A stretch of 64,000 nucleotides of DNA from an uncultured Clostridia bacterium (GTDB taxonomy: Bacteria > Bacillota > Clostridia > DUPQ01). The stretch lies in the NCBI GenBank assembly GCA_963766335.1, contig CAVXZA010000002.1:1615530-1679529 (forward strand), written 5' to 3'. Positions within the stretch are counted from its first letter, which is position 1, and the number at the start of each line of letters is the position of its first letter. Shown one piece after another: positions 59,891 through 61,444 of this stretch. Below the pieces are notes generated by a model. That model ran no database searches. It was not told where the DNA came from and saw only the letters and a list, made by a program, of their open reading frames with translations. The position numbers and the translations under genes are program-made.

Positions 59891-61444
59891 ATGCTTGCTA
59901 TACATGCAGAAAATATAATCAAATATTATGGCGACAGGCTTATCCTTGATATATCCGACATAAAGATATACACGGGTGATAAAATTGGTCTTATCGGCAC
60001 GAACGGTTGTGGAAAAACAACCCTTCTTGACGTAATCACGGGGAAAATCCAGCCCGATGAGGGAAAAGTTCATATTAACACTTCCTGGTCTTATATAACT
60101 CAATTGGGCCATATAGGAATGGAAGGCCACCTTAGCGGGGGGGAAGTAACAAAGGCGAAGGTATTTGATGCGTTTGCATCAAATCCGGGCCTTATGATTG
60201 CAGACGAACCCACTGCGAACCTTGACAGCGATGCAATAGTAATAACGGAAAACCTATTCAAACGTCTGAAGGGCTCGCTTATCATAGTATCCCATGACCG
60301 TGCATTCCTTGATGTGCTGTGCAATAGAATATTCAGGCTTGAAAACGGCAGGATAACCGAGTACCACGGCAATTACTCGTCTTATGCAAGGCAGGTTGAG
60401 CTTGATAGAATAACCAGGCAAAATGAATATGACAGGTTTGTAGCTGAAAAGGCACATCTTGAAGGTGCTGTAGCTGGTATGGCCAAAGCTGAGAAGAGGA
60501 TTAAAAAGACCCCTTCAAGAATGGGAAATTCAGAGGCGCGGCTTCACAAACGGTCTTCTACAGCAATAAAAAAGCATTTGGCTCAACACAGGAAAGGCTT
60601 TCAGACCAGACTAGAAAAGCTTGATGAAAAAGATAGGCCGAAAGATCCGTATACTCTAAAAATATATCACCAGGGTGTCAGGCTGCCTGTGTCAAGAACA
60701 GCGCTTAGCCTGAGTATTCCTATGCTGGCGGCCGGGGGAAAATACCTTATAAAAAATATTAAACTAACAATTCCTACAGGGTCAAAAACAGCTTTAACCG
60801 GTGCCAACGGGTCCGGGAAAACAACCTTGCTGAATTACATATATAAGAATAGTGAAGGGGTAAGGGTGGCTCCGGGCAGCAGGGTGGCATATTTCAGCCA
60901 AAAACTTGACAGTGTTGACGACGGACTGAGCCTTCTTGACAATGTGCTTAAAAACAGTACCATTGAGCGTGGGATTATCCGCACGGTGCTTGCTTCAATG
61001 CTTTTTACAAAAACCGACATTGATAAACCGGCCTCGATTCTAAGCGGCGGCGAAAGGGTAAAGCTTCAGCTGGCATGTTCTTTGCTTTCAGGCGCGGATT
61101 TCCTCATTCTTGATGAAGTTACAAACTACCTTGACATCAGGGCAATTGATGCGCTTGAAAAGCTGATGCAAGAATTCCCGGGCACCATACTGTATGTTTC
61201 GCATGATCGCAGGCTTGTTGAGAATACCGCGGACCGGATATATGAAATTAAAAATATGGGAATAGATGATTTTACGTATCTTAATCATATAAAAGACATG
61301 GCGGATACGGAAAGCATTCTACTTAATATGAGGCTTTCCGAACTCGCTGCTTACCTTGGGAAAGGCGATATTTCGGATGAGCAGAGGGAAAAATCACAGG
61401 CTGAATATGACGAACTTGCGGCTAAAAAAAGAAAATCCACTTAA
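59891..61444 (+). CDS. ABC-F family ATPase of the ARE (Vga/Lsa/Sal-like) type
   Basis: Two NBDs (Walker A [9 protein letters not shown] / GANGSGKTT, signatures LSGGE / LSGGERVKL, Walker B [12 protein letters not shown] / [11 protein letters not shown], H-loops VSHDR) separated by about 95-aa basic linker. Blocks like [35 protein letters not shown] closely parallel Vga(A)-type proteins. GGAGGG ribosome-binding site before ATG 59891. Confidence 0.7.
   Translation: [517 protein letters not shown]

Follow-up and report, generated by a model that had tools for sequence, protein, structure and literature searches.

The 64,000-nucleotide stretch of DNA analysed here (the window) carries, downstream of engB, a gene that a sequence-only reading had taken for a Vga/Lsa-type antibiotic-resistance protein of the ABC-F group. 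Is its product a ribosome-protection protein or a housekeeping translation factor, to which subfamily does it belong, and how is the gene controlled?

Architecture and family of the ABC-F protein

The reading frame proved real and intact. It encodes 517 amino acids followed by a stop codon and contains two complete ATPase domains, in which all eight catalytic motifs are present and intact (Table 1). We assigned the start to the ATG at 59891, as GGAGGG lies 6 nt 5' of it and the N-terminus of all relatives, ML(A/I)LHA.NI, begins at the equivalent position. The upstream ATG at 59822, which opens the mechanically called ORF of 540 aa, was rejected because it has no Shine-Dalgarno (SD) sequence, its extension lacks conservation, and alignments with homologues start at 59891.

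Table 1. Features of the engB-ABC-F region, in window coordinates or protein residues
Feature	Position	Strand	Basis or remark
engB (YihA/YsxC-type GTPase)	59153..59794	+	Pfam MMR_HSR1; upstream neighbour
SD of regulatory uORF, GGAAGGA	59776..59782	+	8 nt before uORF ATG, within last engB codons
Candidate regulatory uORF, ATG AGG AAG TAA (Met-Arg-Lys-stop)	59791..59802	+	In 7/7 loci
Leader segment 1, GGAAGTAATTTCAATC	59795..59810	+	Predicted to pair with segment 2
Leader segment 2, GATTGGGATTATTCC	59830..59844	+	Alternative predicted partners: segments 1 and 3
Leader segment 3, GGAATAACCC	59862..59874	+	Overlaps anti-SD CCCTCT (59869-59874)
ABC-F SD, GGAGGG	59879..59884	+	3' arm of hairpin CCCTCT-GGAC-GGAGGG
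ARE1-type ABC-F gene	59891..61444	+	ORF, NCBIfam, Pfam, PDB phmmer, tree, AF2, Foldseek
NBD1, residues ~1-160	59891..60370	+	Motif spacing against reference proteins; strand/helix pattern
NBD1 motifs	GTNGCGKT36, LSGGE81, MIADE102, SHDR134		Motif positions
NBD1 sites	Residues 36-43, 81-85, 102-106, 134-137		Walker A, signature, Walker B/catalytic Glu, H-loop
ARD linker	60374..60619	+	AF2 secondary structure; alignment of tip motif
ARD parts	Residues 162-203, 204-212, 213-243		Helix, tip loop (KKTPSRMGN), helix; AF2
NBD2, residues ~270-461	60698..61273	+	Pfam, motifs, AF2
NBD2 motifs	GANGSGKT304, LSGGE384, LILDE405, SHDR437		Motif positions
NBD2 sites	Residues 304-311, 384-388, 405-409, 437-440		Walker A, signature, Walker B/Glu, H-loop
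C-terminal extension, two helices (463-490, 496-516)	61277..61441	+	AF2

The spacing of the motifs was compared with that of reference proteins. The span from the first Walker A to the first H-loop was 98 aa in the query, compared with 96 in Vga, 116-118 in Msr, 132 in Lsa(E), and 169-183 in EttA, Uup, YheS, YbiT, OptrA, and PoxtA. NBD1 is therefore compact, as had been claimed, and it lacks the 'arm' insertion. From the first H-loop to the second Walker A, the span was 170 aa in the query, 172 in Vga, 176 in Msr(E), and 140-143 in the four Escherichia coli housekeeping ABC-Fs (EttA, Uup, YheS, and YbiT). Relative to the housekeeping proteins, the linker of the query is 27-30 aa longer and its NBD1 is 71-85 aa shorter, in agreement with the long basic linker of the sequence-only reading, whose quoted linker peptide is present. 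In the AF2 model (pLDDT 84), the ARD forms a helical hairpin around a 9-residue tip (pLDDT 81-92). The tip motif is common to clostridial ARE1 proteins and is not found in EttA, Uup, or YbiT in the alignment. The C-terminal extension aligned with the tails of Vga(A)-LC and VgaL in the PDB phmmer search. Pfam detected ABC_tran in three stretches spanning both NBDs and ABC_tran_Xtn at 27.9 bits (cut-off 25.9); thus Pfam, the motifs, and the AF2 fold all show the two NBDs and helical linker of an ABC-F protein.

The NCBIfam scores of the query were 486 bits for Vga_all, 449 for CplR, 391 for Msr, 228 for Uup, 217 for EttA, and 172 for Lsa. The query passed the cut-off of NF000355 (ribosomal protection-like ABC-F family protein; 430.0 bits against 380), on which the clade members P0003 and P0007 scored 419 and 424 bits. 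It missed the cut-offs of the Vga family (NF000170; 485.9 bits against 725, with a true Vga-family protein, P0066, scoring 763 as a control), of CplR (NF043038; 448.6 bits against 780, the alignment ending at residue 468), and of Lsa/ARE3 (NF000167; 172.3 bits against 750). The housekeeping cut-offs were also missed, with 217 against 599 for EttA, 228 against 900 for Uup, and 221 against 762 for the YbiT-type model.

Searches with the sequence and the predicted structure gave the same placement. In the phmmer search of the PDB, Vga(A)-LC ranked first (E = 5e-101, far beyond chance), followed by VgaL (E = 2e-88), MsrE, and VmlR, then by housekeeping proteins, with Lsa(A) last. The Vga(A)-like blocks named in the sequence-only reading were confirmed in a position-by-position comparison with Vga(A)-LC (PDB 7nhl), in which a 35-residue block of the query aligned with an equally long stretch of that protein and a 21-residue block with its IGYFSQKIDTLELDKSILENV. 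By tblastn against plasmids, the query was 39-40% identical to Vga(C) and Vga(A) over 97-100% of its length; its identity to Msr(E) was 35.8% and that to Lsa(E) 25.5%. The top Foldseek matches of the AF2 model were VgaA-LC and VgaL (TM 0.72-0.80), and Lsa(A) ranked 22nd. In a neighbor-joining tree (57 sequences, 522 columns, distance method only), the query fell inside the ARE1 clade of Vga(A)/(C), Vga(G)/VgaL, and Msr(A)/(E) with 94% bootstrap support and its own clade received 100%; this ARE1 clade excludes Lsa, OptrA, PoxtA, EttA, Uup, YheS, and YbiT, in a tree that is without ARE2 and ARE4-6 references and contains no VmlR, Sal, or ARE4/5 sequences. For VmlR, Sal, and ARE4/5, the PDB and HMM scores of the query were all lower.

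These results support the assignment of the query to ARE1 (Vga, VgaL, Msr, and clostridial CplR-like proteins) and not to Lsa (ARE3) or the housekeeping ABC-Fs. Of the earlier label, the Vga part stands, as Vga/CplR-type, and the Lsa part falls; the view that the protein is not of the housekeeping kind is borne out by the tree and by the HMM and PDB scores. As judged from its sequence, the product is a soluble ABC-F protein with two ATPase domains that belongs to the ARE1 subfamily. Its own clade is small and deep, with eight relatives at 62-82% identity and the next proteins at ≤44%, and it comprises eight sequence clusters among 5.8 billion proteins. A scan of genome contigs yielded only distant ABC-Fs (≤36% identity). 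The query is at least 56% divergent from every characterised ARE; given this divergence and the missed Vga and CplR cut-offs, its drug spectrum could differ.

A candidate attenuator at the end of engB

The gene is chromosomal and adjoins engB, its upstream neighbour on the same strand, as had been noted, and the two are probably co-transcribed. Sigma-70 promoter scans between engB and the ABC-F gene gave no convincing site, and no terminator was found on the + strand in 58200-61800. There is no U-tract behind the SD hairpin. No Rfam family matched this leader or the related leaders. A check for an upstream leader attenuator, which the sequence-only reading had proposed, revealed a candidate in recognisable form, with a uORF, predicted alternative helices, and an SD hairpin.

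The 3' end of engB carries the SD and the start of the uORF, whose ATG shares bases with the TGA that ends engB (59792-59794). In all seven related leaders, the uORF SD is kept, 8 nt from the start codon, as GGAAGGA, GAAGGTGGA, or GGAAAGGA. The uORF always consists of three codons and a stop, encoding MRK in four loci and MRR, MSK, or GTG-RN in the others. The uORF, its SD, and the four segments are conserved in these seven loci, where the ABC-F proteins are 62-82% identical, and this conservation persists across indels of 45-250 nt in the loop that separates segment 1 from segment 2. Scanning metagenomes for this pattern added no new leader variants; the scan gave only an L016-type copy (L034) and a chance match (L035) in an unrelated coding region.

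We next consider the pairing of the segments. The duplex of segments 1 and 2 was predicted at -12.9 kcal/mol and that of segments 2 and 3 at -12.0 kcal/mol; equally good pairing occurs in 0.095% of the 16-mers and 0.025% of the 11-mers of the window, respectively. The two predicted helices would be mutually exclusive. Over the seven loci, 94% of the cells were paired in helix 1:2, 86% in helix 2:3, and 90% in the SD hairpin, compared with 36-66% in slid controls. MAFFT shifts the anti-SD region of two loci (L015 and L020) by 1-2 columns, so these column-based counts are slightly too low and the duplex energies of the individual sequences are the better guide; by that measure, L016 has a weak helix 1:2 (-3.6 kcal/mol). 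The SD hairpin CCCTCT/GGAGGG was predicted in 7/7 loci, with a probability of 0.001-0.13 that the SD is unpaired in free RNA, and the spacer behind it is A-rich in every locus (AAAAAT in the window). The claim that the gene has its own ribosome-binding site thus needs amending: the site is present but not free-standing, being the 3' arm of a conserved hairpin. Covariation in the leader helices was not significant, as 249/500 and 160/500 shuffles reached the observed scores in tests that have low power with seven similar sequences. The proposed helices rest on conserved complementarity among seven fairly similar sequences.

A modelled ribosome on the uORF reduced the cost of opening the region from the SD to the AUG in all seven loci. 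The cost decreased from 7.5 to 2.3 kcal/mol in the window and from 10.1 to 3.8 kcal/mol in L020; where the leader has a long insert, the predicted drop was small (L019, 7.4 to 6.5; L036, 8.2 to 8.0 kcal/mol). We also considered as the sensor a mini-ORF in the loop that joins segment 2 to segment 3, ATGCTTATCTAA (MLI, 59845-59856), and rejected it. Its start codon is AGG in L036, and in L015 and L020 it continues in frame into the main ORF. With a ribosome on this mini-ORF, the SD-opening cost over the seven loci was 5.2-10.6 kcal/mol, compared with 2.3-8.0 kcal/mol for the MRK uORF; it rose in three loci and fell only modestly in four, and in the short-leader model the SD hairpin remained closed.

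Comparison with known ARE systems and alternative explanations

Among solved or named proteins, the best match in both sequence and structure is Vga(A)-LC (TM 0.73/0.80). The staphylococcal ARE1 proteins Vga(A)/Vga(A)-LC and Vga(C) have 522 aa, compared with 517 in the query, and share with it the compact NBD1, the two-helix C-terminal tail, and an ARD length within 2 aa. However, the ARD tip of Vga(A)-LC is KKPKNLSSSEGKIKV and differs from that of the query, and the Vga genes reside on small mobilizable plasmids whereas the query gene is chromosomal and belongs to an anaerobe. The Vga(A)-LC leader, with an MIN uORF, also differs in having a separate terminator with a T-tract. VgaL/Lmo0919, i.e., Vga(G) of Listeria monocytogenes (PDB 7nhn), is a chromosomal, intrinsic ARE1 gene product and the second-best PDB match (TM 0.72/0.79, 35% identity), with the same ARD length in the alignment. 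Its leader resembles that of the query in having a 3-codon uORF (MKF) and a CCTCTC..GGAGG hairpin just 5' of the ATG; there, the hairpin is followed by a T-tract and so also acts as a transcription terminator, unlike in the query. T-tracts are found directly behind the SD hairpin in the Listeria, Halobacillus, and Acetoanaerobium leaders, and other ARE1 leaders share the plan of a 2-3-codon uORF and an anti-SD/SD hairpin directly before the ATG.

Like cplR, the query is a chromosomal ARE1 gene of Clostridia. The clostridial ARE1 relatives examined have an ARD of exactly its length (170 aa), with a tip motif that is almost unchanged; the clostridial CplR-like radiation is 37-44% identical to the query, and its grouping with it is weak (56% bootstrap). 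This comparison uses the CplR HMM and Clostridium relatives that score below the CplR cut-off, not the CplR sequence of C. difficile. Both leaders have a 3-codon uORF beginning with Met-Arg (consensus MR[I/M] in cplR; PMC10201436) and a hairpin sequestering the main SD. In contrast to cplR, the query leader has no poly-U terminator, and its uORF coincides in part with the stop codon of the preceding gene, whereas that of cplR lies in a dedicated 5' UTR of ~210 nt. Translational attenuation alone suffices for the control of cplR (PMC10201436). VmlR of Bacillus subtilis belongs to a different subfamily, ARE2 (E = 3e-59; 25% identity in Foldseek), but its leader follows the same logic, with a tripeptide uORF, stalling of ribosomes at the initiation stage, and an SD-sequestering hairpin, SL-4 (PMC9226507); MRK itself is a natural variant of the vmlR uORF (PMC9226507). 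Beyond what is seen in the query, vmlR is controlled by RNA polymerase pausing, an intrinsic terminator, and (p)ppGpp (PMC9226507). In its predicted layout, the leader matches the translational half of the cplR and vmlR attenuators.

The ABC-F gene is not universal in the lineage. The order LysR-engB-ABCF-DUF4153 is found in 6/6 relatives whose contigs reach upstream past engB, and in sister genomes (PurA 78-84% identical) engB is joined directly to DUF4153, with neither the gene nor the leader, so the two form a lineage-specific cassette; the uORF and segment 1 were not found at the engB 3' ends of relatives without the ABC-F gene. No mobile-element genes lie nearby, and the GC content of the gene is the same as that of its neighbours.

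We consider it improbable that the protein is a housekeeping translation factor, acting on difficult templates or in 50S maturation and kept beside engB for that purpose. The stable gene order, the lack of nearby mobile-element genes, and the uniform GC content would fit such a role, and recent work (PMC12421871) assigns regulatory or rescue functions to some ARE-type ABC-Fs. Nevertheless, the protein lies inside ARE1 with a linker of ARD length, every housekeeping model stays far below its cut-off, and the leader is of the drug-sensing type; the direct engB-DUF4153 junction in the sisters indicates, moreover, that the gene is dispensable. It also appears quite unlikely that this ARE1 protein acts on other drugs, either macrolides and streptogramin B, as Msr does, or another drug of the peptidyl-transferase centre or exit tunnel. 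Although Msr proteins are ARE1 members with appreciable similarity to the query (391 bits and 35.8% identity, as given above), the clade is deep and uncharacterised, and few ARD residues set the spectrum, the ARD of the query is 6 aa shorter than that of Msr(E) and equal to those of VgaL and the clostridial group, its NBD1 is Vga-sized rather than Msr-sized, and its tip motif is that of the CplR-like group. Macrolide-sensing leaders encode longer stalling peptides. The 3-codon uORF suits drugs that trap initiating ribosomes, as described for vmlR (PMC9226507) and cplR (PMC10201436).

The leader might, alternatively, be no switch: the SD hairpin would only damp translation, and the uORF and segments would be conserved for the 3' coding sequence of engB, for mRNA stability, or the like. 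We regard this as rather doubtful. The nonsignificant covariation and the small thermodynamic effects in L019 and L036 agree with it, as does the finding that the uORF region is partly engB coding sequence in six of the seven loci. In the seventh, L016, however, engB ends 28 nt earlier, and the SD, the 3-codon uORF, and segment 1 are retained there although the DNA is non-coding. Furthermore, segments 1 and 2 remain complementary despite the long indels, ABCF-less relatives lack the motifs at the end of engB, and the layout parallels that of proven attenuators.

Proposed mechanism and significance

Taken together, the locus is likely to represent an ARE1 ribosome-protection gene under translational attenuation, with engB on the same mRNA. 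We infer ribosome binding, resistance (including the intrinsic resistance proposed in the sequence-only reading), drug spectrum, and inducibility by analogy with the characterised systems. Judging from Vga(A), VgaL, and CplR, the ATP form of the protein would enter a 70S ribosome stalled by the drug at its E site, and the helical hairpin of the ARD would reach beyond the P-site tRNA as far as the peptidyl-transferase centre. This would dislodge the drug allosterically or sterically, and the protein would leave after ATP hydrolysis. The length and tip sequence of the ARD point to pleuromutilins, lincosamides, and streptogramin A, not macrolides, as the probable drugs. Control would be by translational attenuation alone. 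Without drug, segment 1 would pair with segment 2 and the anti-SD with the ABC-F SD, keeping the gene off. With drug, a ribosome trapped on the 3-codon MRK uORF would cover segment 1; segment 2 would then pair with segment 3 and the anti-SD, the SD would open, and the gene would be on.

More tentatively, with something short of even confidence, we suggest that a stripped-down, purely translational ARE attenuator was grafted onto a housekeeping operon, the cassette having been inserted as a unit. This cassette would comprise a new EngB tail, the leader, and the ABC-F gene, and a single lineage of uncultured Clostridia would have received it at the engB-DUF4153 junction, where the sisters lack both leader and gene. 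The sensing uORF would start on the engB stop codon itself (ATGA). The leader would have no promoter or terminator of its own, so that induction would occur only when a ribosome on the engB mRNA is trapped at MRK. If true, this arrangement would mirror in nature the engineered poly-U mutant of cplR and would provide a minimal leader of ~100 nt for sensing initiation-blocking drugs.

The gene and its leader extend a known class in a credible but unremarkable way. They leave the understanding of ABC-F resistance unchanged, as chromosomal ARE1 genes with tripeptide uORFs are already well documented in Firmicutes. What they add is a deep, rarely sampled branch of ARE1, ≤44% identical to anything else, which the AMR models now in use, the Vga and CplR HMMs, leave unnamed. 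The clade is an environmental reservoir of probable protection against pleuromutilins, lincosamides, and streptogramin A, and its compact, terminator-less leader could serve as a minimal system for studying how uORFs sense drugs directed at the peptidyl-transferase centre.

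The ABC-F gene and its place among resistance proteins

At the ABC-F locus, a mechanical ORF listing gave 59822-61444 on the + strand, and ATG 59891 is the start codon backed by evidence, giving a product of 517 aa. The Shine-Dalgarno sequence (SD) GGAGGG lies 6 nt upstream of this ATG, every relative begins at this position with ML(A/I)LHA.NI, and phmmer against PDB aligned Vga(A)-LC and VgaL with the protein from within its first dozen residues. No protein-level conservation was seen among the relatives 5' of the ATG. Both nucleotide-binding domains (NBDs) were covered by Pfam ABC_tran, the ABC-F linker domain ABC_tran_Xtn was also matched, and every catalytic motif is intact in both ATPase sites, including both catalytic glutamates. 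When phmmer aligned the protein with PDB 7nhl, the blocks that the sequence-only reading likened to Vga(A) agreed at nearly every residue. The ORF and its start, the Pfam domains, the catalytic motifs and the Vga(A)-block matches confirm that the gene is real.

Five independent comparisons, together with domain geometry, agree that the protein belongs to ARE1, the subfamily of Vga, VgaL, Msr and CplR-like proteins. Among NCBIfam models, it scored 485.9 bits with Vga_all, 448.6 with CplR and 390.5 with Msr, passed the generic "ribosomal protection-like ABC-F" model (430.0 bits; cut-off 380), and scored far lower with Uup (228), EttA (217) and Lsa (172). PDB sequences ranked Vga(A)-LC (5e-101), VgaL (2e-88), MsrE (1e-79) and VmlR (3e-59), followed by Uup, YheS, YbiT and EttA (~1e-50), with Lsa(A) last (8e-31). 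In tblastn against plasmids, identity was 39.0% over the full length for Vga(C), 39.8% for Vga(A), 35.8% for Msr(E) and 35% for Vga(G), and 29%, 28% and 25.5% for PoxtA, OptrA and Lsa(E). A neighbor-joining (NJ) tree was built from 57 sequences (the query clade, a sample of the next-best homologues, named plasmid resistance genes and four Escherichia coli ABC-Fs). The query clade (bootstrap 100%) grouped with Vga(A)/(C), Vga(G), Msr(A)/(E) and chromosomal clostridial proteins at 94%, and Lsa(E), PoxtA, OptrA, Uup, YheS, YbiT and EttA branched outside. Finally, the AlphaFold2 model (pLDDT 84.4) was closest to the VgaA-LC and VgaL structures (TM 0.72-0.80). Phylogenetic placement thus leaves the housekeeping ABC-Fs outside the group. 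The earlier label "Vga/Lsa-type" was right in its Vga half and wrong in its Lsa half, given the Lsa score, the low Lsa(E) identity and the position of Lsa(E) outside the clade.

The compact NBD1 and long linker noted from the sequence were borne out. The distance from Walker A1 to H-loop1 is 98 aa, close to Vga (96) and below Msr (116-118), Lsa(E) (132) and the housekeeping proteins (169-183). From H-loop1 to Walker A2 there are 170 aa, as in the clostridial proteins; Vga has 172, Msr(E) 176 and the housekeeping proteins 140-143. In the AlphaFold2 model, the linker forms long helices (162-203 and 213-243) separated by a nine-residue tip, and a two-helix C-terminal extension follows. The 16-residue tip sequence of this interdomain hairpin (ARD) is invariant across the query clade. 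The clostridial radiation and one Halobacillus protein share this feature as (R/K)(K/T)(T/A/P)PKRMGNSE(A/W)(R/Q)L(H/G), whereas staphylococcal Vga has KKPKNLSSSEGKIK in its place.

Within ARE1, the protein is distant from every known protein. Among 5.8 billion proteins searched, eight relatives share 62-82% identity with it, and the next ones reach at most 44%. The query fell far short of the curated NCBIfam cut-offs for Vga and CplR, whereas P0066, a genuine Vga-family control, passed the former with 763 bits; its identity to the Clostridium proteins with the highest CplR-model scores is 40-42%. Grouping of the query clade with the clostridial radiation reached a bootstrap of only 56% (NJ). 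The query clade is a separate deep ARE1 clade, not to be classed as Vga, CplR or Lsa.

A leader with predicted alternative helices

The interval between the engB stop and the ABC-F ATG is only 96 nt long. A candidate for the leader-peptide attenuator that the sequence-only reading proposed to look for was recognizable in all seven orthologous leaders available (the window and loci L015, L016, L018, L019, L020 and L036) as a conserved three-codon upstream ORF (uORF), segments able to form alternative helices and a predicted SD-burying hairpin. The predicted layout is that of a classic four-segment attenuator.

Features of the leader, its surroundings and the rest of the window
Feature	Position	Strand	Remark
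tRNA (one)	4788-4869	-	Rfam, above gathering score
glmS ribozyme	10649-10800	+	Rfam, above gathering score; overlaps start of ORF 10791-12611
c-di-GMP-II riboswitch	12846-12929	+	Rfam, above gathering score
Very large ORF	32905-40443	+	2512 aa
T-box leader	51089-51289	+	Rfam, above gathering score; precedes 875-aa ORF 51337-53964
EngB C-terminal tail (…DDDPDSYEPAIAGEGTKE)	59740-59794		holds uORF SD
uORF SD GGAAGGA	59776-82	+	conserved; uORF starts 8 nt further on
uORF ATG AGG AAG TAA	59791-59802	+	three codons and stop
Segment 1 GGAAGTAATTTCAATC	59795-810	+	complementary to segment 2
Segment 2 GATTGGGATTATTCC	59830-44	+	complementary to segment 1 or, alternatively, segment 3
Mini-ORF ATG CTT ATC TAA (MLI)	59845-59856		loop between segments 2 and 3
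Segment 3 GGAATAACCC	59862-71	+	complementary to segment 2
Anti-SD CCCTCT	59869-74	+	overlapped by segment 3; hairpin with gene SD
Gene SD GGAGGG	59879-84		6 nt 5' of ATG 59891
Extended -10-like TGATATAAT	61466-61474		between ABC-F stop codon and DUF4153
DUF4153 gene	61511-63292

The uORF start and the engB stop codon overlap as ATGA. MRK is encoded in four of the seven loci, and the other three have MRR, MSK and (GTG)RN; the length is three codons and a stop throughout. Although the engB of L016 stops 28 nt further upstream, the uORF and its SD persist there in non-coding DNA. Helix 1:2 (15 bp, one bulge) has -12.9 kcal/mol, a value equalled by only 0.095% of window 16-mers, and helix 2:3 has -12.0 kcal/mol (0.025% of 11-mers). 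In free RNA, the gene SD is buried (unpaired probability 0.001-0.13). We modelled a ribosome with the uORF start codon in the P site and a footprint of -12 to +15, which removes segment 1, and the ensemble cost of opening SD..AUG fell in all seven leaders.

Modelled cost of opening SD..AUG (kcal/mol)
Leader	Free RNA	uORF ribosome
Window	7.5	2.3
L020	10.1	3.8
L016	7.0	4.4
L018	6.7	4.6
L015	6.6	4.7
L019	7.4	6.5
L036	8.2	8.0

The leader is likely a switch, short of established because of the following results. Covariation did not exceed that of shuffled controls, seven fairly similar sequences being unable to prove a structure. Pairing was conserved in 94%, 90% and 86% of cells compared with 36-66% for slid partners, a control biased by deriving the helices from the same sequences. 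Helix 1:2 is weak in L016, no promoter was found for the ABC-F gene, and a metagenome scan gave no further leader variants. The MLI mini-ORF is probably not the sensor: its ATG is in frame with the main ORF without a stop in L015 and L020, where it would add 16-17 aa N-terminally, and is AGG in L036. Its context CC(A/G)(T/G)GC is invariant.

Four loci carry leader insertions of 45, 100 and ~240 nt, always in the loop that separates segments 1 and 2 in helix 1:2. The ~240-nt inserts (L019:160-400 and L036:60-305) are homologous and alignable throughout, with no window counterpart and no Rfam match; the 100-nt insert of L015 is unrelated and has a long inverted repeat (GACAACAGTGATTTTCCA...TGGAAAACACCGTTGTC), and that of L018 is 45 nt. 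These inserts may hold a promoter or further regulatory RNA.

The short uORF and SD-burying hairpin parallel the cplR leader, with uORF MR[I/M] (PMC10201436), and the vmlR leader, with uORF MIN and natural variants MDN, MDK and MRK (PMC9226507). By direct inspection, other ARE1 uORFs are MIN (Vga(A)-LC), MKF (Listeria Vga(G)), MKY (Halobacillus) and MK (Acetoanaerobium). In the chromosomal leaders among these, a CCTCTC...GGAGG hairpin directly 5' of the ATG is followed by a T run; leaders of the query clade have the hairpin too, but next to it an A-rich spacer (AAAAAT, AATAT, ATATT and others) and no T run. No + strand terminator was found between engB and the ABC-F gene. Because the terminator half was lost in the query clade or never there, control would act on translation alone, and the mRNA probably also carries engB. 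In a cplR poly-U mutant, translational attenuation by itself keeps cplR off and inducible (PMC10201436).

Neighborhood, inheritance and meaning

The gene order is purA (-), a LysR-type regulator, engB, the ABC-F gene, a DUF4153 membrane protein gene and GH172. It was kept in all six relatives whose contigs reach upstream past engB, at ABC-F identities down to 62%. In two sister genomes (PurA 84% and 78% identical) with the same neighborhood, the ABC-F gene is absent and engB directly joins DUF4153; a third relative (PurA 73%) has another gene 3' of engB. No uORF with SD, segments 1-3 or anti-SD hairpin was found at the engB 3' end of ABCF-less genomes. ABC-F identity is 62-71% where PurA is 87.5-91.7% identical, comparable to DUF4153 at 63%, and the GC content of the gene is in line with that of its neighbors. 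In our reading, either a single old insertion occurred in the subclade ancestor or the gene was lost in the sister genomes, with vertical inheritance afterwards.

The EngB tail is conserved only in ABCF-bearing genomes; in ABCF-less relatives, EngB ends differently and earlier. The end of engB may have been rewritten by cassette insertion. Because TGATATAAT also precedes DUF4153 in L037, an ABCF-less relative, it suggests that DUF4153 has its own promoter and that the motif marks the right edge of an inserted cassette.

No ABC-F paralogue was found within the window, nor any other ABC ATPase at E < 1e-3 (tblastn with the ABC-F protein) in its 64 kb, which is unusual for a Firmicute region that large and probably without significance. 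Like the window with its 2512-aa ORF, the related locus L038 has a very long gene, called at ~2498 aa near the purA neighborhood. The T-box, glmS ribozyme and c-di-GMP-II riboswitch of the window fit an origin in an uncultured member of Clostridia, to which the PurA relatives are also assigned.

The protein stands as a candidate ribosome-protection protein of Vga/CplR (ARE1) type. By homology and anatomy, its spectrum would most probably be pleuromutilins, lincosamides and streptogramin A, and its recognizable, probably antibiotic-sensing leader would make it inducible. Only the terminator-less leader fused to the engB end and the occurrence of the cassette in some genomes but not in others are mildly unusual. 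The chromosomal gene is probably "intrinsic" to the subclade, and it is dispensable for the wider lineage.
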